The position numbers and the translations under genes are program-made. Below are positions 226-63,936 of a stretch of DNA of 64,000 nt, piece after piece. Source of the DNA: Mobula hypostoma. Its lineage: Eukaryota. Where the stretch lies: positions 114,516,001-114,580,000 of the forward strand of contig NC_086107.1 in NCBI RefSeq assembly GCF_963921235.1, given 5' to 3'. Under the pieces are notes generated by a model that was not told where the DNA came from, did no database searches, and worked only from the letters and a program-made list of their open reading frames with translations. Numbering within the stretch: position 1 is the first letter of the stretch; each line of letters starts with the position of its first letter.

Positions 226-21037
<20,812 letters not shown>

Positions 21038-22403: not shown

Positions 22404-46185
<23,782 letters not shown>

Positions 46186-48150: not shown

Positions 48151-48190
48151 CTAATATGGTCTCTCTCTTCGGTCTTGTCTGTGATCACTC
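48151..48190 (-). CDS. FUS: FUS exon 15 (PY-NLS, stop)
   Basis: [12 protein letters not shown] with TAG at 48153-48151. Confidence 0.95.
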
Positions 48191-51100
48191 CTTCAGGGAG
48201 AGAGAGAAAGAAAAGGCAAGGAGGGAGGTGGGGAGGGGAGAGAGACGCAAAACAAAAATGGGTTAGACTGTTACATTCAGCAACAAGGGATGTCTTCAAT
48301 TACAAAGTCAGTACCATAAGACAGGAGGGGCACGAACTGAGCGGCGCGTGTCTGTGTCTGCGAAGGGACTGAAAATGTTCATGATACGAAGGTCAGCAGA
48401 ACCATTTACCTGGAGTCCATTTTCCCAGATCCCATGCCAAACCCTCCTCGGTCACCACCTCTGCTCCGGAATCCCCCTCGGTCCCCTCCACGGCCACGGA
48501 AACCGCCACGGTCAAAGTTCCCGCGGCCTCCGCGATCCCCTCCTCCAAAACCACCTACAGTGGAAACAGGGAGGCGGAAATGTCAGGGAAAGGCAGAGAG
48601 ATCAGAGGCACATTCCCTCCACACCATCCCAGGGTCGGACAAAGATAGAGACACTCGCATGGAATTTAACCCTTACTTACCCATCTGGGGTGGCCCGCCC
48701 GCTCCTTCAGGTTTGGGAGATTTGCACTGGTTGCATTCATTCCTCCATGAGAAGTTGATGTTGCCACAGCTCCTGCCAGAGAGAGAGAGACCATTCAGAT
48801 CACGACTGGAGTCCTGTCCACCTAAACCTGCCACTCCAGCCCCACTAACCTCACAAGCATTCAGTTAACGGTGCTCCACACCGGGCATACACAGTGAACG
48901 TCAGGGCCCCTGGCTGGGACTGTTACACAGCTGAGGGACCTAGGGGTATGGTGATATGGTTTGCTGAGAGTATTGTCACAGGTAGACAAGGCAGTGACCA
49001 TGGCATTTAGCATTCTGCCCTTCATCAGTCAGGAGTTGGGATGTTATGTCACAGTGCACAAGGTGTTGGTACTATGAGCAGCTCAGATCATCCCGCCATT
49101 TTTGCCCTGGGAACAAAAGTCTCTGGCTAGTCACTTTTATCTATGCCCCTTATCATCTCGTACAGTTTTACCAAGTCACCGTTCTTCCTCCTCCTCCTCT
49201 CCAAAGATAAACACCGTACTTCACTCAACCGTTCCTCAGGAGATGTGCTCTCTAGTCAAGCCAGCATTCTGGTAAATCTCTTCTGCACCCTTTCTAAAGC
49301 ATCCACATCCTTTCTATGAGTTAACCAGAACTGAACGCAATATTCTAGTTGTAGCATAACAGTTTTATAACAGGCTTTTGAACATAGTACAGCACAGTAC
49401 AGGCCCTTCAGCCCACAATGTTGTGCCGACCCTCAGACCCTGCCTCCCATATAACCCCCCACCTTAAATTCCTCCATATACCTGTCTAGTAGTCTCTTAA
49501 ACTTCACTAGTGTATCTGCCTCAACCACTGACTCAGGCAGTGCATTCCACGCACCAACCACTCCCTGAGTAAAAAACCTTCCTCTAATATCCCTTTGAAC
49601 TTCCCACCCTTACCTTAAAGCCATGTCCTCTAGTAATTGAGCAGTGATGCCCTGGGGAAGAGGCGCTGGCTATCCACTCTATCTATTCCTCTTATTATCT
49701 CGTACACCTCTATCATGTCTCCTCTCATCCTCCTCCTCTCCAAAGAGTAAAGCCCTAGCTCCCTTAATCTCTGATCATAATGCATACTCTCTAAACCAGG
49801 CAGCATCCTGGTAAATCTCCTCTGTACCCTTTCCAATGCTTCCACATCCTTCCTATAGTGAATGCAAGGAGTGTTTAAGCTGCAGAAAAGATTCATAGGA
49901 ATTTTGCTGTACTGAAAGGCTTGAGTTACAAGGAACGACCAGATAGACTGGTGTGTTGATGTTTCTGGAAGACAATTTTAGACAAGACTTTCAGGGATGT
50001 GGTACAGCAGAGTACAAGTACAAGGGGTCCATGAAAGTGGTGTCACAGGCAGACATGGCAGTAAAAAGGCATTCAGCACACTGGCCTCCATGTGTCAGGG
50101 CACTGTGTACAGGAGTTGCAGTCACACAAGATATTGGTGAATCCTCATTTGGAGTGTTGCCTTCGGTTCTAGTTCATTATATGAATGACGCCGAAGCTTT
50201 AGAGAGGCTGCAGTGGAGATCTATTACAATGCTGCCTGGATTAGAAAGCACATCATACTGAGGAAAGATAGAGTAGGCTTCTCTCTGGAGGAAATATGCT
50301 ATTAAGCTGGAACAAGTGCAGAGGAGATTCACAAGGACATCACCAGGACTCATAAGACTAAGTACGCTCTGAGGAGAGATCAGGCACACTGGGACTCCTC
50401 CTTGAAGGGCGATCTTACAGAGGTGTTTAACCTCCTTGAAGGCCACAACTAGGGGGAATGACTATGATACACAAGAGCAGAACTAAGCCAAGTATTCTCT
50501 GTCATTCCACTATGGCTGATTTATTTTCCTTCGCAACTCCAGCATCCTCCCCATGATCCCCTTACGAACTGGGAAGTATTATTATCTTATACGCCAGGGT
50601 TTGGGATCCAAAACCCAGAGGGCAGAGGGTTAAGATGAAATGGGAAAGATACTTAGTAGGGACCTGAGGGGGTGGTCCATGTATGGAACGAGCAGTAAGA
50701 GGAAATGGCTGAGGTACGTTTATGACGTTGAAAAAACATTTGGACAGGTACACATACAGAAAAGGTTGAGGGCAAGTGGGACTAGCAGAGATGGGAATCC
50801 TGATCGGTGGGGACTGGACGAACCAAAGGGCCTTTTGTTCTGAGCCTGGACGTTCACCAACACAGGGCAGGGTTTTCTGAAGACCTCTCATACTCACGGA
50901 TTTGAGCACTTCCAGTCACCAGCTCGCTGCTGTCCTCCACCACCACCTCCTCCTCCTCCTCCACCTCCAAAACCACCTCGTGGACCACCTCCGAATCCTC
51001 CACGGCCCATGGAACCTGACCCAGAGACAGAGAGAGAGAGGGAGATGAGAAGGAGAGAGACACCAAGGGTTGGGCAGAGAAAGTTGGGCTCCAGCTACCC

Positions 51101-54100
51101 CTTGGCACCTCCACAGTGGAGACATGGACGGGGGTGGTGGAAGAAGAGGGGCAGCAGGGTAGCCACACCCCACCAAGAGAAGCCGAAGCGCCCCCTCCCC
51201 CAACCCCATAACTACTTGGAAAGGAAGCACTGGAGCATTATGAATCCTACTCACCTCCGCGACCTCCACCTCCTCTGCCCCCACCTCTCATGCCTCCACG
51301 ACTGAATTCGGTGCGGCGTGTGGCAAAGGATACTTTGATCATGTGACCGTTGAATTCCTTTCCTGAGACACAGAGGAAAGAGTTGGCGAGACAGGCTTGG
51401 TCACAAACTACCCTTCCTCAATACCGTCAACAGGAAGGCCGTATCCTCCCCCCCCCCCCCCCCCGGGTCCTTCTGCGTCTCCACCATTGAGTCAGCAGTA
51501 AGGAAGACAAATGCAATATTAGCACTCATTTCCAGAGGACTAGAAGATGTAATGCTGAGGGTTTATAAGGCGTCAGTGAGACTGCATCTGGAATATTGAA
51601 AGTAGTTTTGGGGTCTGTACATGAGACAAAATGTGCTGGCATTGGAGAGGATCTATCTAGATCTTTAATTAGGTAGGTGTCAATAATATCCTTGCTTATT
51701 CTTCTAAACTCCAGTGAGTGCAGGCAGAGCCATTAACCTTTTCATTCCCACGATCATTCTCAGAAACCTCCTCTGGACCCTCTGCAACACCAGCATGACC
51801 TTCTTCAATTCCCCTATTTCGGTTATCCTTTCCCCTCTTCTCTTCCGCCCATTACCACATTCCTGGTTCAAAGTAAATTCATTATCAAACTAAGCACCAT
51901 ATACATCCTTGTTTCCGTGCAGACATTTTACATGTAAATTAATGAATTTACAAAAAGCTATACATAACTAAGGCTGAAAAGGAAACAATGTGGAAAAAAA
52001 CAACTAAATAAAAAGTATCAAGAACAAGATTTGCAAAACAAGTCTATATATCATAGAATCAGTTCAGAGTAGCAGTGAATGAAGTTATTGTTGAAGGCTA
52101 GTAACCGTTCCTGAACCTGAGGCTTCCGTAGCTCCTTCCTGGTGGTAGCACTGAGAAGTCTTGGACGAGATGGTGGGGTACTGGATACTGCTTACTTGTG
52201 GCAGCATTTTGTGTAAGTGTGCCCAGTGGTGGGAGGGCTTTGCCCGTGATGGACTGGGCATTGGTGCTTCCATACCAGGCTGTGATTCAACCAGTTAAGT
52301 AAGATGCATCTATTAGAGCTTTTGGTAATATACCAAATACAACATGCAAATCACTCATCTTCCAGCATTCCCAGGCTCTTAAGTCAGCATGAACACCACC
52401 CCCCACCACCACCACCGTTACCCACAGCCACTCACCGTCAAACCAGTCGATGGCTGCCTTGGCAGAGGGAGGATCATCAAAGGAGACGGTGGCCTCACCC
52501 TTCAACTTGCCGGTCTCACGGTCAGTGTACAGGTTGATCATGGGCTGCCCAGTCCTCTTGTTCATCTGCAAGGTGGTGATGGGGGTAAGAGAAGGGTTCG
52601 CCCCACAGCCACCCCCCGTCTGTTCTAAATGCCCCACAGCCAAACCCCGTGTTCTAAATGCCCCACACCCAAACCCCATCTGTTCTAAACGCCCCACACC
52701 CAAACCCCGTGTTCTAAATGCCCCACACCCAAACCCCATCTGTTCTAAACGCCCCACACCCAAACCCCGTGTTCTAAATGCCCCACACCCAAACCCCATC
52801 TGTTCTAAATGCCCCACACCCAAACCCCATCTGTTCTAAATGCCCCACACCCAAACCCCGTGTTCTAAATGCCTCTTCAATACCTGCATCGTATCTGCCT
52901 CTACCACCACCCCTAGTAAGCACATTCTAGGCACCCAGGTCAAACTTGAAGGCAGAGTAGAGCGCTAATGGCAGCATTCTTGGTAGTGTGGAAGAACAGA
53001 GATCTTGGAATCCACATCCATAGATCCTTCAAAGTTGCCACGCGTTGACAGTATCGCTAACCAAGTGTATGGTGTGCTGGCGTTAGGTGGGCTAAAAAGT
53101 CGCGAGGTAATTTTTCAACACCAGAAAACTCTGGTTAGTTCACACGTGTTCAGTTCTAGTTACCTCATTATAGGAAGGATGTGGAAACTTTAGAGGCTGC
53201 AGAGATGATTTACCAGACACTGAACACACTTAAGAGGAAAGGGCTTTCCGTGTGAAGGATGAAAGAAAACTTGACAGAGGTGCACAAGATGATAAGAGGC
53301 ATAGACAGAGTGGACAGGGAGGCAATGGTAGATACCAGACGACATCACTTAAGGTGTATGGAAGAAAGTTTAGGGGAGATGGTGAAAGGTGCCTTTGTTT
53401 TTACAGAGTGTGGGTGCCTGGACTACACGGCCCAGGGTGTGTGACAGAGGAAGATAAGCGGATGGCAATGTGGTAGACTAGGGTCAGAGTAGATTAAAAG
53501 GGCCTGTACTGTTCCGAACTATGCACCACAGGCAGGCAACAGGGGATATAGACCACATGCAAGCATTACAGTGACCTTGTGGCCTGCACAGATGCATTGG
53601 ACCAAAGGGCCGTGAGACAGGGTACTGGCAGTGATGCTGCACGAGTTGAGTGAGGCCAGGGAACCAGAGGGGGTCAGCAATTTACCTTGATCACGCCGAT
53701 CTGCTTGAAGAAGTCGGCCACAGTATCCACAGTGACGTTCTCACCGAGTCCCTGGACGAAGATGGTGTTGTTGTCAGAGTTGTCCTGGTCTGAGCCTGCG
53801 ATGGGGTGAAGAGGGAAGAGAAATGACATATCTTTCTGAGCTACTGAGGGAGCATGTCCCCACCCATCACTCTCTCCCTTGTCTCTGAAACCCACATCAC
53901 AGTAACCCTGTCACTAACACAATCCACCCCACCGTCACATCAACACACCACCAGAGCCTTCCGCCATATTTTAACCCAGGGGTGGCGAGCCTTTTTGCAT
54001 GTGTGCCCAAATTGGCGATAATCTTTCAAAAATAATTTTCTTGTTTGCCATGATTACTTGCAGCAGTGATCATCACAGGTTAGTGAATTTGTAACAATAA

Positions 54101-57100: not shown

Positions 57101-60100
57101 ATATACTCTCTAGTACCAAACCTTGCATAGGACATTCACATACTAAGCTCAGCCAATTTTACCATTAACAGCTCTGCACACAGTTTTGCCTTCTACAAAA
57201 AAAAGATTAGGTATAAAAATATGTAAAATATAATACAGGACTCATTCGGTAGGTATGTAGAACTACACAGAGGTGCGTCTATTGTAAAGACACCTCACTG
57301 TACTTGTTACCTTTGATTCCACTCTTAACACACACCACTGCTATGGCAGAATCTTTACGTGTATACAAGACCTTGGTTTTTTTTTTGTTTTTGAGACTTG
57401 CATTAACCTTAAAAGCGGCTGAATTGTGGTGTCAACTTTTTTTGTGTACGGCATGCAACTCTCTTGGATTAACAAAAAATAAAAAGGATTTTGGTTATGT
57501 AAACTAGTGTGGAGGGGTGCAGAAGTGATACAGTTCATTTCACTTTGAAACCTGTGACACACAAAATTGCAAGATTTGTTAACATCAAAACAGCAGATAA
57601 ATAAATGTGTTTTATCTAAGTAGTAAATATATTTGCTTTCATATGCCCGTCATTCACACCCAGCCCTGATCTGCCAACCCAGAGATACACACCAGCAGTT
57701 AATGTGAGAACCCCTGCAGCAAACCTGGCTTCATGCCGAAGTCTTGGCGTGAGGCAGGTTACCGTCACACCAAACCAAGTAACTGGTGCATGTCTGACCC
57801 GGTGGAGAGATAGTCACAGAGCTTTCCTCGGCCCTTTGCCCACCCCCACAAAAATTACGGTACTCCACCCCCTTTATTTTAGAAAAGGAATCACACCACT
57901 TCTCGGTAGACTTAGGGACACCACGGCCTTCTCTTTGTCAACAGAATCGTTTGCAGACACAGATGAACATACAACAGGTTTAGCAGAGCTGGCCTGGGCC
58001 TCTCCTTCCCCTGGCGCCCCACCGAGCACACACTTTCAGCTGAGTGCACAGGAGGCTCCTGTCGGGAGACCCCAGCCGACGGCCAACGACAGAATGTTCG
58101 GTTTAAGACGATAGAACACAGGGTGGTACACCAGGGTAGGGAAAACAGCCCGGCCCGATCAGCTTTTGTCTCCCACCCACCACATGCAACTAGTTCGTAG
58201 CCTTGTCAGTGTACTTGGAGTTCAGAACCACCCTAAATATTCTCCCCCCACCCTGTTTATCTTCCCTCCCACTGAGTCTGTCACACCTTCCTCATCCCCC
58301 TCCCTAGCTGTGCTCCACCCATTCACCGCCCCTGGAATCAGTCTAGCTTTGTCCCCAAGCCCTAGTCATCATGACACTTCTCCCCTCACTCCTGGACACT
58401 GCTCTTCACCCTTCCCTGGGTCTGCTTCAGTTCACACCCCACCCTCAAACACCACCTTTCTGAACCTCCTGCCCCAAATACCCACCCCATTCCCGAAGGA
58501 CCACCCCTTTCACCTGTCCACAGTAACCCCAGACACACTTGCCTCCATCCCATCCCCTCCTAATCTGGCTCAACTTACACCCCACCGCCCCCCACCAACC
58601 GCACAACACCTCACCTCACTGTCGTGTACCATCCTCCCCAGCACCTCTCCCTTCACTTCCCATCCCTGGCTCATCCCCTCCTGCCCTGCCCAAACTCTAC
58701 TCTCTCCCTTCACTCTCGCTCCTCTGCTGGCCACAGTCCCCCTTCCCCTCTCCCTCTCCCATCCCCCCTCCCGCTCCCTCTTTTCCCCACCTCATCCTTT
58801 TCTCTCCTAATGCCGCATCCCTCCTAGACTGAAGCTGCTGAACCACTCCGAGACACCGGCCTTCCCGTGGAGGTGAAACAGGCTCCCCCTACCGCTCCCT
58901 CAAGCACGTCTCCCCACCCCCTCCCACATGAACGGATCAAGAGGCTGAACCTTACCTCATACCCCCACCTCGTCCTCCACGGCTCCCTCGCCCGCCTCCT
59001 CCACCGCCCCCTCGCTCGAAGCTGCCACCTCCTGCTCCTCCGCCTCCGCCTCCACCACCTCCGCCGCCACGGCTATACCCCCCTCGACCTCGGCCTCGGC
59101 CTTCCTGCTGCCCTCCTCCATATCCACCGGGGTCCTGGCTGCCGTAGCCTCCACCGGGGCTGGAGTCCTGGTTGTATCCACCTGCAGGGGAAAGGAGAGA
59201 CGGTCAAAAGGAAAGAGACGAACAGACAGACAGAAACGCTGAGGAAGGAGAGGGAGAGCGTGAGGGAAACAGGTCCGGGGGTGGGGGGGTGGAAACCAAG
59301 TTTTATAAGGCATTACTTACAGCGCACTGGAATACAGACAGGCTGTAGACTGGTCAGGGCATCAAAGGCACTAACACAGGGTTATGAGGGATAACAGAAT
59401 AGCAGGGAAGGCTCAGGGGGCAAAATGGTCTCAACCTGCTCCCATGTCTGATGCTTCTCATCAAGTACTCGTACAAGTCTTTAGTGCTCATAGTACCACT
59501 GGTCAGCACTGACATCCTGGGACAAAGGGCCTGCTTCTGAATCGTATGATCTGAGAGACCCCTCGCTTTTGACTCCTTTGCTGCTTTAAACATCCTTGTC
59601 CACCCCATGTCAGGACTTTCTATCTTTCAGTGAAATCACCTCTCATTTGTTCCTAGGAGGATCCAAAGGAGAGCTAACGAACTGCATCCACAGCAGGCAC
59701 GATGGAAGCCAGTTTTTCAGACAGGAGACCGGTGACTAGAGGCATTCCCTGAGGCTGGCCCTGGGACCTACATTCTCTGTCATTCACTAACGATCGAGAT
59801 GAGGGGCAGGGCGGTGAAGTGTGCACGTTATGTTGCAGCTGTAAAAGATGGCGGTGAGTCCACATATGGTACAGTAGTCCAGTTTTGTTCACCCAAGACA
59901 CCAGTACACTGTGGAACGTAGAACAGATTTACAACAGTGCTGCAGGGACTTGAGGGAATGAGTTATGGAGAGGGGCTAGGCAGGTTGGGACTATAATTCC
60001 TTGGTGAGTAAGAAACTAAGTGACTTTACAGAAATGTAGAAAACCATGAGGGGCGCAGATAGGTTGGGGAATCAAGAACAAGAGGACACAAGTTTAAGAA

Positions 60101-63100
60101 GAGAGGGAAAGATTTAATAGGGACCTGATGGAACGAGCTAGCAAAGGAAGTGGTTGAGGCAAGTATATTAACAACACCAACAGTACCTGCTACAAGTACG
60201 TGGACAGCGAAGGTTTAGAGGGATTTACAATGATTAAGGAAGATTATAGGGATATGGGCCAAAGACAGGCAAATGGGACGAGCTGCTACAGGGATCTTCA
60301 ATGCAAGCTTCCTTCGATGGGGCTCTACAACTAGATAGCAGAGAATATTTGCGCTGTAACTATCCCTCACTCCCCCCCCCCCACCCTCAGCGCTCTTGGC
60401 ACATGGTTAAAAAGGGAAGAATTAGATTGGTGCTAAGAGGAGGTTATGAGGTCAGCACAGTGTAGACTGAAGGACCTACACGATGCTGCACTGCTCCATG
60501 TTCTCCCTTCCCCAGCTCCTGCAAAGGGCCTCGTTCTCTGCGATGAGAGTGAAGCAGTGGGAGAAGCTGGGACCAGCGCGACCCGAGGGACTCGGCTCCC
60601 GGTGGTAGCGACCTGAACAGAACCAAATACTCACCCCCTCCTGAGCTGCCCCCACCGCTGCCACCGTACTGGCCCTGTTGACCGTAGCCTCCGCCTGCCT
60701 GGCCCTGGTAGCCCTGCTGTTGTCCGTAAGGGCCTTGCTGTTGTCCATAGGGTCCTTGCTGTTGTCCATAGGACCCCGGTTGTTGTCCATAGGGTCCCTG
60801 CTGTTGTCCATAGGACCCTGGCTGCTGACTGTAGCCCCCACCGCCCTGTGGGTGCCCATAACTGGTCGTCTGCGAGTTTGTTCCCCCGTAGCTGCTGAGG
60901 GAGTAACAATGCGCTCAGGTCAAAGGAGCTGGGTATGTACAGTTAATATCCCCTTCTGGACCCCTGGTGTTGAGACAAGCTGTCCTACCCCAGGCCCCAG
61001 ACACACCACCCACCTCCCCAACCCCGGAACTCTGTGGGAGCAGGCGTCGGGCAAGCCGCCCCCTCCCACCCTGTGGGACCAGGCGTCGGGCAAGCCGCCC
61101 CCTCCCACCCTGTGGGACCAGGTGCTGGACATCACCACCCTGGACTGGGTGCTATGTTGTGTTACCAGCCCAAAGACTCACCTGCTGGAGGAGGTGGCTG
61201 AAGGTGCCTGCTGACCATAGCCAGGGTAGGAAGACTGTTGCCCGTAGGAACTCTGTGGTGCCTGGGTATTGCCATAACCAGAGGAACTGTAGCCACCCTG
61301 GCCCGAGTGAGTGTAGCCTTGAGAGGTGGGCTGGGTCCCATACCCTACAACGAGAACACAGCATGTAGGCATATCATATTGTTTACAAACGCATAATATT
61401 ATTTCAATTCCCACCACTACAAGGAGATTCCATGTTCTCTCACATGGGATTCTTCCGGGTGCTCCAGCTTCCTCCCACATCCCAGAGACATATGGCCCGG
61501 GATAGGATTAGTAACTTTTGGGAATGCTATGTTGGCGCCGGAAACATGGCGACACATTTTCGGACTGTGTTGGTCGTGTCACAGACAACGCGTTTCACGG
61601 AAGGTTTTGATGTATGTGCGACAAATAAAACACTGCAGTCGTACAAAACTCCCGTTTGGTGTGCAGTCTGTCCGTCACATCTGCAGACATGACAGCAACG
61701 GGCAGTGCAGAGCAGCATTGCCTGGAATGGAGAGTGACCATAAAGAGAGATTCTACAGGTTGGGTTACTAACAGAAGGCCGTGCGGGGACTTTATGAAAT
61801 TTACAAAGGCACCATTAAGGTAAATGATCAGTACTTCTCCAGGTTAGGGGCGGCTCTTTCACACTCACTCAGTGGGCGTTTAATAATCCTTCATTATAGG
61901 ATGTGGAAGTTCAGAGTGTGTGCAGAGCTTTAGCAGAATGGGGCCTGGCCTAGAAAGCACATCTTGTGAGGAACGGAGGAGTGAGCAGATCCAATAAGCT
62001 GGAAGAAGTGCAGAGCAAGGATGTTGGTGGGACTTGAGGGAATGAGTTAGAGAGAGAGGTTGGGACTTCATCCCTTGGAGCGTAGAAAACTGAAGACTAC
62101 CTTTCAGGGGTGTGTAGGAGGACAGACAGTGAAAATGCAGTCTTTTATTGATTAGGAAAATCAAGACGTAGATGGCACAGGTTTAAGGTGAGATGAAAAA
62201 GATTCAATAGGGATAGGATGGGCAACTTTGTCCACCCAGAGGGTGGTCCATATATGAAACAAGCTGGCAGACGATGTGGTTGAAGCAGGTACAATTACAA
62301 TTAAGAGGCTTTTGGACAGATACATGGATAGGAAAGGTGTAGCAGGATATGGGCCAATGGGGGAGGGGGGCGAGGAGAGAAAAGGTTTAGCAGAGCGGCA
62401 CGGCAGACAAGATGGAGAGATGGTTTTAAAGGAGCAGAATCTGCACTGTACAACCCAATGCCAATGTAGGGCAGACAACCAGAATTAGGCTCATTATCGC
62501 CAAAGAGTGCAAAACGAAAGGTTTACAGTTTACAGAGAGTTCACCAATCTGCTGGGGGGAAGAGAAGATGCTGTCTTGCTGAAGAAAAATGAGAATACAT
62601 CACATCTGCATCTGTCACCCTTCTCCTGGGCTCTAGCTAAACCTGCTGAGTACCTTTGTCCCACTGTTTGCCGACAACAGCATATGAAGAGCTGGTAACA
62701 GAAGATGTAAACAACAGGAGCAAGAGTGGCCCGTCAAGTCTGCTCCGTTACTCAGTATGATCAGTGGCCACGGTCTCAGCATCTTCCTGCCTTTTCCCGA
62801 GAACTCTGCATTCCCCTGCCATTTGGGTCCACAGGAGAGTTACCAGGATACTGCCTGGATTAGACAGCATGTCTTATAAGGGTGAGTGAGCTATTGTGTT
62901 TCTCTTTGGAGGACAAAAGGCAACTTGATAGAGCTGTATAGGGTTATGAGGCATTGATAGAGTGGGCTGCCATCATCTCTTTTCAAGGGGAGCAATGGTC
63001 ACTACAGAGATAAGTGGAGGAAACTTTAGGAGAGATGTCAAAGTCACAAGTGTTTTATTTTAGAGTGTGCTGGATGCCTGGTGTGAGGTAGAGGCTTAAA

Positions 63101-63936
63101 CATTCAGAGACTCTTAAACCGGCATATCACTGAAGGAAAAGGGAGGGTTATGGGCGCTGAGGGAAGGGAGGATTAGGCTGATGGCAGAGTAGGTCTATAC
63201 AGGTTGGGAACAGACACAGAGAACATGCAGTGCAGGCAGACAATATGGTGGAAGGGCCACGTTGATGTAGATAGGGTAGAACCTGTCAGCCTGGTGGGAC
63301 ATGCTTTCACGATTTTGTATCTTCTGTTCGAGTGGAGGGGAGAGAAGGGAGCATATTGGGCTGTACTGTTCTACTTTCCCCATTACGTTTAATGCTGTGT
63401 AGGAGGGAAGGATAAAGGAAAAAAGATACGCAGACAGCCACTGCCTTTGTCCCAGGGTGAAACAGCTAGTACTAGAGGATATGATTTTAAGGTGACTGAA
63501 GAGATGTCAGGTGTTTTTTTTTTTAAACACAGAGTGGTGGGTGTATGGAACTATCTGCCAAGCATGGAGGTAGAGGCAGATACATATAGAGACATTTAAG
63601 AAACTCTTAGAAAGGCACATGGATGATAGAAAAATGGAAGAGTTAGATTCATCTCAGAGTAGGTTAAAAGGTCAGCATAACACCATGGGCCAAGGGGGTC
63701 TGCGCTGTGCCACTGTTTGTTGACACCCACAGAACTACCGTAAACCCATTACGAGGGTTTGCCAACGACACTTACCAGTCTGTGCCTGGCTGTAGGAGGA
63801 ACCGTAACCGCTGCCCTGACTGTAGCCAGACGTATCCGTTGGCTGGCTGTATCCACTGTAGCCCTGGTGGCTGTACCCCTGGGGAGGAGGCTGGCTGTAG
63901 CCACCTTGACCGGGTTGGGTGCTGTAACCCCCATAG
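48151..63936 (-). CDS. FUS: RNA-binding protein FUS (FET family), 5'-partial (exons 3-15)
   Basis: Exons 63936-63776, 61344-61182, 60894-60635, 59181-58956, 56842-56808, 54969-54934, 53795-53686, 52565-52436, 51362-51255, 51015-50898, 48772-48681, 48554-48410, 48190-48151. QGSY-rich prion-like domain, RGG boxes, RRM ([10 protein letters not shown]...[23 protein letters not shown]), RanBP2 zinc finger ([24 protein letters not shown]) and PY-NLS (RQDRRERPY*). Adjacency to KAT8/BCKDK favours FUS over TAF15. Confidence 0.94.
48410..48554 (-). CDS. FUS: FUS exon 14 (RGG3)
   Basis: [48 protein letters not shown]; 145 nt. Confidence 0.94.
48681..48772 (-). CDS. FUS: FUS exon 13
   Basis: [30 protein letters not shown]; 92 nt. 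Confidence 0.95.
49381..49860 (-). mobile_element. CR1-type LINE 3' fragment
   Basis: [23 protein letters not shown]...[17 protein letters not shown]; within a cluster of older CR1 debris (~48900-50830). Confidence 0.85.
50898..51015 (-). CDS. FUS: FUS exon 12
   Basis: [38 protein letters not shown]; 118 nt. Confidence 0.94.
51255..51362 (-). CDS. FUS: FUS exon 11
   Basis: [35 protein letters not shown]; 108 nt. Confidence 0.94.
52436..52565 (-). CDS. FUS: FUS exon 10
   Basis: [43 protein letters not shown]; 130 nt. Confidence 0.96.
52610..52872. repeat. Minisatellite, alternating 29/31 bp units (FUS intron 9)
   Basis: tgttctaaa(t/c)gccccacacccaaacccc(g/atc) x ~8. Confidence 0.94.
53686..53795 (-). 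CDS. FUS: FUS exon 9 (RRM start)
   Basis: [36 protein letters not shown]; 110 nt. Confidence 0.95.
54934..54969 (-). CDS. FUS: FUS exon 8
   Basis: [12 protein letters not shown]; 36 nt. Confidence 0.9.
56808..56842 (-). CDS. FUS: FUS exon 7 (35 nt)
   Basis: ctcag|C GGT GGT GAA CGA GGT GGA TTC AAT AAG TTT GGT G|gtaagt = [11 protein letters not shown]. Confidence 0.93.
58956..59181 (-). CDS. FUS: FUS exon 6
   Basis: [43 protein letters not shown]...GRGGGM; 226 nt. Confidence 0.93.
60635..60894 (-). CDS. FUS: FUS exon 5
   Basis: [38 protein letters not shown]...GGSSGG; 260 nt; CAGCAG tandem acceptor. Confidence 0.92.
61182..61344 (-). CDS. FUS: FUS exon 4
   Basis: [53 protein letters not shown]; 163 nt. 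Confidence 0.93.
61700..63700 (+). mobile_element. Multiple degraded CR1-type 3' fragments (FUS intron 3)
   Basis: Repeated relics of gcacaggtttaaggtgag, cacagagtggtgggtgtatggaa and ttggacagatacatggataggaaagg. Confidence 0.7.
63776..63936 (-). CDS. FUS: FUS exon 3
   Basis: [53 protein letters not shown]; 161 nt. Confidence 0.92.

Follow-up and report, generated by a model that had tools for sequence, protein, structure and literature searches.

At the right-hand end of the 64,000-nucleotide (nt) stretch of the Mobula hypostoma genome that we analyzed (the window; contig C45, G000:C45:114516001-114580000, from an assembly of 3.48 Gb in 200 contigs), the minus strand carries the gene FUS. Once exons 3-6 of this gene are spliced, a second open reading frame (ORF), shifted by one base relative to the FUS frame, stays open for 268 codons from an ATG to a TGA (Table 1). 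The length of this ORF does not exceed what is expected by chance. We think it probable that the ORF is the positional counterpart of human altFUS, and that its existence and its length follow automatically from composition and CpG avoidance. (Human altFUS is a 170-codon ORF with a one-nucleotide shift over the prion-like domain of FUS; OpenProt IP_243680; Brunet et al. 2020, EMBO Rep, PMC7788448.)

Judged by its sequence, the host gene is the FUS orthologue, because RRM (near 53763 and 52502), a zinc finger (near 48753), and the ...RQDRRERPY end (near 48180) lie downstream on the same strand, and because its product matches FUS from Narcine bancroftii. This reference is an annotated ray protein, 'RNA-binding protein FUS isoform X2'. 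The translation of spliced exons 1-6 is colinear with it, and 235 of 274 aligned residues are identical (86%), the peptide from exon 2 included. A protein search with the main-frame translation of exon 5 gave four matches among 7302 candidates; one of these was a FUS/FET-family protein, and it was the protein from Narcine.

The window does not include exons 1 and 2, for which we examined the adjoining upstream DNA. For exon 2, motif searches modelled on the human FUS N terminus gave no match. A scan by splice signals and composition gave three candidates, of which the 34-nt candidate alone fits, and the N terminus of the Narcine protein later backed it. Exon 3 opens with C TAT GGG, and the main frame there is phase-shifted by one base. 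Exons 3-6 together have 810 nt, which give 269 main-frame codons, rich in Gln, Gly, Ser, and Tyr at first and then in Gly and Arg. By eye, exon 5 starts at a tandem CAG|CAG (NAGNAG) acceptor at 60889-60897. Use of the inner acceptor would drop 3 nt and leave an ORF of 267 codons, with both frames unchanged, and a one-residue gap in the alignment to Narcine near the exon 4/5 junction is consistent with such a tandem acceptor. We also considered whether the ORF might be an artefact of a wrong exon model. Canonical borders at every splice site and the colinear match to Narcine FUS ruled this out.

Table 1. Positions of the shifted-frame ORF, of the repeat within it, and of the FUS exons (for exons 1 and 2, window-equivalent positions)
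Feature	Position	Strand	Description
Shifted-frame ATG	63932..63934	minus	Formed where Tyr17 (TAT) is followed by GGG; context AGAGCTATGG
Shifted-frame TGA	58957..58959	minus	Formed where the sole internal main-frame Met (ATG) is followed by A
Tandem repeat in exon 5	60712..60824	minus	21-nt units coding for G-S/P-Y-G-Q-Q-Q
FUS exon 1	73032	minus	Reads ATG GCG TCC AAC G|gt
FUS exon 2	65388	minus	34 nt; strong polypyrimidine acceptor, GTAAGT donor
FUS exon 3	63936-63776	minus	161 nt; AG acceptor, GTAAGT donor; colinear with Narcine FUS
FUS exon 4	61344-61182	minus	163 nt; canonical AG/GT borders; colinear with Narcine FUS
FUS exon 5	60894-60635	minus	260 nt; canonical AG/GT borders; possible NAGNAG acceptor 3 nt further in
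FUS exon 6	59181-58956	minus	226 nt; Gly-rich/RGG part; canonical AG/GT borders

Each codon of the shifted frame consists of the second and third positions of a main-frame codon and the first position of the next one. Its ATG is the first after the FUS ATG, 49 nt downstream in the inferred mRNA. Both this ATG and that of FUS have G at +4; at -3, the former has G and the latter has A. The N terminus of the ORF is basic (Lys/Arg), with no acidic residue among its first 27 positions. At the other end, exon 6 gives an acidic tail of Glu, Ala, and Val, and the TGA lies entirely within this exon. We compared the shifted-frame translation of exon 5 (86 amino acids) with proteins of 152-2000 amino acids, and none of the 297 candidates reached E <= 0.001. 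Against 1.84 billion representatives, the same query had 13 matches at E <= 0.001 (best, 7.1e-8). We inspected 8 of the 13, and all of these were unrelated tandem-repeat proteins of the x-D-N-S-K type.

Composition and the length of the open frame

For a stop codon to arise in the shifted frame, the main frame must have either NTA with A or G as the next base or NTG with A as the next base. These codons encode Leu, Ile, Val, or Met. Over the overlap, the composition of the main frame is G97 Q45 S40 Y31 P17 T12 R8 A6 H3 D3 N3 E2 F1 M1. So Leu, Ile, and Val do not occur at all in the 269 codons, and the one Met is the last codon and makes the TGA. It follows that no choice among synonymous codons can create a stop in the shifted frame. 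Narcine FUS is likewise free of these four amino acids between Leu6 and Met274.

To put numbers on chance, we randomised the codons in two ways, 20,000 times each: by shuffling synonymous codons between positions (permuted codons) and by drawing them uniformly (uniform codons). A stop arose inside exons 3-6 in 0 of the 20,000 + 20,000 trials. An ORF that starts with ATG and has 268 codons or more was present in 74.7% of the trials with permuted codons and in 82.8% of those with uniform codons. For ORFs of at least 170 codons, which is the length of human altFUS, the corresponding figures were 98.1% and 99.5%. A sequence-only reading of this DNA had reported the 268-codon frame and its split among the exons (53+54+1+86+74). 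When we spliced the canonical exons and translated the frame, the former was correct to the base and the split was recovered as well. The same reading cautioned that composition forces the frame open and proposed a codon-shuffling null. With no Leu, Ile, or Val in 269 codons, and with shuffled codons giving equally long ORFs in 75-83% of trials, we find this caution to be both correct and decisive.

The proposed mechanism begins here: the N-terminal half of FUS, which is rich in Gln, Gly, Ser, and Tyr and then in Gly and Arg, offers none of the NTA or NTG codons that could give a stop, so the shifted frame stays open. The third sense frame of spliced exons 3-6 has an open run of 230 codons. 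ORFs that overlap low-complexity or disordered coding sequences have reportedly been described before, by Kovacs et al. in 2010 and by Pancsa & Tompa in 2016 (as cited in PMC7788448). As here, such regions in general have long alternative frames where the main frame is compositionally biased, and these ORFs are a statistical phenomenon rather than a specific family.

We made two further observations of this kind. One antisense frame of spliced exons 3-6 (58956-63936) is without a stop over all 269 codons, as an effect of composition. And by eye, the last ~130 residues of Narcine FUS isoform X2 resemble a frame-shifted translation of the zinc-finger/RGG region (...TNANPRNQKEE...), so this C-terminal part would be a further Gly/Arg-rich segment of FUS in which an alternative frame is open over a long stretch.

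Start codons, paralogues, and selection

Between the FUS ATG and the end of exon 6, all ATGs but the final Met are in the shifted frame (n = 10), and each of them is a TAT-G at a Tyr-Gly. The tandem repeat in exon 5 supplies 4 of the 10, in PMDNS-type repeats. Among Tyr codons, we counted 10 TAT and 8 TAC before G, as compared to 1 TAT and 13 TAC before other bases (Fisher p = 0.0075; the counts are not independent, as 4 of the 10 TAT-G lie within one tandem repeat). The other codons that end with a pyrimidine show the same bias, with 21 T and 15 C before G and 26 T and 66 C before other bases (Fisher p = 0.0022). Because the bias is shared by these non-Tyr codons, the excess of TAT ahead of Gly amounts to ordinary avoidance of CpG where codons meet. 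CpG avoidance would prefer TAT over TAC before Gly and, in doing so, would seed ATGs in the shifted frame. Within exon 3, by eye, the Tyr codon that gives the start is the only TAT among 9 Tyr codons; before G there are one TAT and one TAC, and the other seven are TAC.

The same genome has separate EWSR1-like and TAF15-like loci, on contigs C78 and C71. In the EWSR1-like gene (G000:C78:23998007-24001832), the exon that is homologous to FUS exon 3 starts with G TAT GGA, which gives a shifted-frame ATG, and the ORF from this exon-start TAT-GGA has 138 codons. Over a stretch of 298 codons, of which 9 encode Leu, Ile, Val, or Met, the shifted frame has three stops, and all of them are at a main-frame Val or Met (GTA-G, ATG-A). 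In the TAF15-like gene (G000:C71:47245426-47267045), the homologous exon starts with C TAT GGA, and the shifted frame is open across two exons and then meets a TGA at a Leu codon (TTG-A); these statements cover the gene apart from the exons between 47245477 and 47266720. Both paralogues thus share with FUS the ATG at an exon-start TAT-GG and a frame that is open for as long as the main frame is without Leu, Ile, Val, or Met. Their ORFs close sooner than that of FUS, after 138 codons in one and at the first Leu in the other, because the paralogue domains hold a few of these residues. Given the shared exon-start ATG and the shared behavior of the frame, the start and the open frame are generic to the low-complexity domains of FET proteins in this genome.

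A different explanation for the start codon is that C TAT GGG is held at the nucleotide level, either by the context of the 3' splice site or of an exonic enhancer, or by a fast decay of TAC-G to TAT-G at CpG with slow reversal, and that the ATG is a passenger. The motif occupies exon bases 2-7 in FUS, and both paralogues have the equivalent TAT-GG at the start of the exon. Also, T is favored before G at codon boundaries throughout the gene, and TAT is the codon at 21 of the 22 Tyr-Gly sites of the EWSR1-like gene. However, Tyr-Gly in FUS is still encoded with TAC in 8 of 18 cases, so the decay of CpG is incomplete, and this kind of constraint is also compatible with translation from the ATG. 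We find this explanation very doubtful.

If the shifted frame were under selection as well as the main frame, this should leave traces in the sequence. Of the 2406 single-base changes that the overlap could undergo, just 4 would be silent in both frames, and a sequence under double constraint should therefore be frozen. Yet the five repeat units in exon 5 differ by 26 synonymous and 10 non-synonymous changes in the main frame and by 10 and 26 in the shifted frame (summed over pairs that are not independent), and one of the units has lost its shifted-frame Met by a change of TAT to TAC. Taking the codon null, CpG, and the repeat units together, we found no constraint on the shifted frame beyond that of the main frame and base composition. 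The comparison to human points the same way. At identical residues in exon 3, human and fish codons differ in roughly half of their third positions, by eye, and PhyloP over the human altFUS overlap is reported to be lower, not higher (2.6 vs 4; PMC7788448). The sequence appears to be without sign of selection for a second protein.

Human altFUS and other vertebrates

For our comparisons to other vertebrates, start retention was scored on 71 rows of Table EV2 of PMC7788448, a sheet that holds further rows. The altFUS of human and the ORF of M. hypostoma lie in the same gene, have the same one-base shift, and overlap the N-terminal prion-like domain. The sequence-only reading had identified the gene as FUS and the frame as that of altFUS, and the match to Narcine and the one-nucleotide shift described in PMC7788448 bear this out. 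In Table EV2, human altFUS starts with MGPT..., and by eye this corresponds to the same TAT-GGG, in a Ser-Tyr-Gly at the start of the homologous exon. As in the fish, the Met residues of human altFUS all arise from TAT-G, and the C-terminal part is rich in Val, Glu, and Ala and arises from a poly-Gly tract. The two differ in length (170 amino acids as compared to 268 codons). To go by the C terminus of the human alternative frame in Table EV2, the human ORF is closed early in the homologue of exon 6 by a main-frame Met-Ser (ATG-AGT), which is absent from the fish.

The ORFs of Xenopus, Nanorana, Latimeria, Danio, and Salmo in Table EV2 are in the same frame, have ~210 to >300 amino acids, and end further downstream than the ORF of M. 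hypostoma. The frog ORFs begin with MGH and the zebrafish ORF contains ...AMGV..., as in the M. hypostoma ORF. The tails of the frog, coelacanth, and salmon ORFs are rich in Val, Glu, and Ala, so this fish is not alone in having an acidic tail. The sequence-only reading had taken the tail to be an addition here, and that view does not hold up. Instead, the acidic tail appears to be the common state outside of mammals, with the mammalian ORF apparently shortened by the main-frame Met-Ser. The names 'Callorhinchus' and 'Rhincodon' have 0 matches in Table EV2, which includes no cartilaginous fish. Relative to that table, the ORF of M. hypostoma is the first example from a cartilaginous fish, of a kind that is already tabulated for bony vertebrates in PMC7788448.

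Could dual coding be ancestral? The sequence-only reading suggested that it may date to the jawed-vertebrate ancestor, but our results do not support a translated and selected second protein, either in this lineage or in that ancestor. Under this explanation, the ORF is an orthologue of altFUS that is translated by leaky scanning, perhaps with a role in mitochondria, and has been selected since the jawed-vertebrate ancestor. We consider this to be unlikely, but several observations favor it and weigh against the view of the ORF as a by-product. Human altFUS has support from ribosome profiling (Ribo-seq), mass spectrometry, and an antibody, and its localization to mitochondria is reported (PMC7788448). 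The gene, the frame, and the start codon match those of human altFUS. The human mRNA in the supplement of PMC7788448 reads ...AAAG CTATGGGGCC... around the altFUS start, and by eye the ten bases AGCTATGGGG around the ATG are the same in human and fish. In both (by eye for human), no other AUG lies between the FUS AUG and this start, and positions -3 and +4 are both G. The ATG is also widely kept: 58 of the 71 rows begin with MG, that is, with the same ATG, and these include mammals (a marsupial among them), a lizard, and three frogs. Of the rows that do not, that of coelacanth begins with MV at the aligned position and that of zebrafish keeps an internal ...AMGV.... Finally, the N-terminal part of the shifted frame may have been under weak selection, which is compatible with all of the tests that we ran.

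With this ATG next in line after the FUS start codon, and in a good context, any ribosomes that pass the FUS AUG while scanning would initiate there, and some low-level translation by leaky scanning is plausible. The basic and acid-free run of 27 residues at the N terminus resembles a presequence, which would suit a mitochondrial protein, but it also follows from codon composition. By eye, the shifted-frame protein shares several blocks with human altFUS (MG.T.P.P, TV..AS, and ..PTLAM.S), which are roughly 40-50% identical. (In PMC7788448, homologues had to match human altFUS with 20% identity or more, over 25% or more of its length.) We attribute this similarity to the conservation of the main frame.

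More broadly, conservation of the main frame, composition, and CpG avoidance predict every feature that ancestral dual coding would explain, and the paralogues, which are not reported to be dual coding, behave alike in start and frame. The other 13 of the 71 rows do not begin with MG: mouse, three bovines (cattle, yak, and bison), pig, pika, shrew, chicken, zebrafish, coelacanth, salmon, and two cichlids. Of these, the listed ORFs of mouse, the bovines, pig, pika, and shrew are without the first ATG. Nor is the end of the ORF conserved, with 170 amino acids in human, 268 here, and >230-300 in coelacanth and frogs. The changes among the exon-5 repeat units that leave the main-frame protein as it is but alter the shifted frame, the divergence of the third positions in exon 3, and the PhyloP values also count against selection for a second protein.

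A more specific proposal is that the start and the open frame were present in the gnathostome ancestor and were translated and selected, so that FUS has encoded two proteins for >400 million years and the 170-amino-acid form of mammals was shortened from a longer protein with an acidic tail. This strikes us as quite improbable. If a functional shifted-frame protein were nevertheless present in a cartilaginous fish, then altFUS would date far back in vertebrates, and variants of FUS that are silent would need to be re-read throughout this group.

We favor the view that the ORF is a by-product of composition and CpG avoidance, in which case a long ATG-started ORF in the shifted frame is the default outcome in the low-complexity domains of FET proteins. 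Therefore, neither the openness of the frame nor the identity of the alternative-frame proteins across species is evidence for dual coding. What remains of interest is the deep retention of TAT-GGG at the Tyr-Gly that gives the start codon.

Other features of the window

An Rfam scan of the window gave no match. Intron 3 contains, at 63500-63700, an interspersed repeat with at least 40 copies at 74-87% identity on many contigs, and intron 4 contains, at 61032-61122, 2.3 copies of a 39-nt unit at 98% identity. The composition of the window also has spikes, which are due to GC-rich, strand-skewed minisatellites with periods of 21-158 nt. These are at 1409-2294, 2941-3845, 4379-5101, 10285-11096, 25732-26144, 28335-28945, and 52599-52873, and the last of them sits in an intron of FUS.

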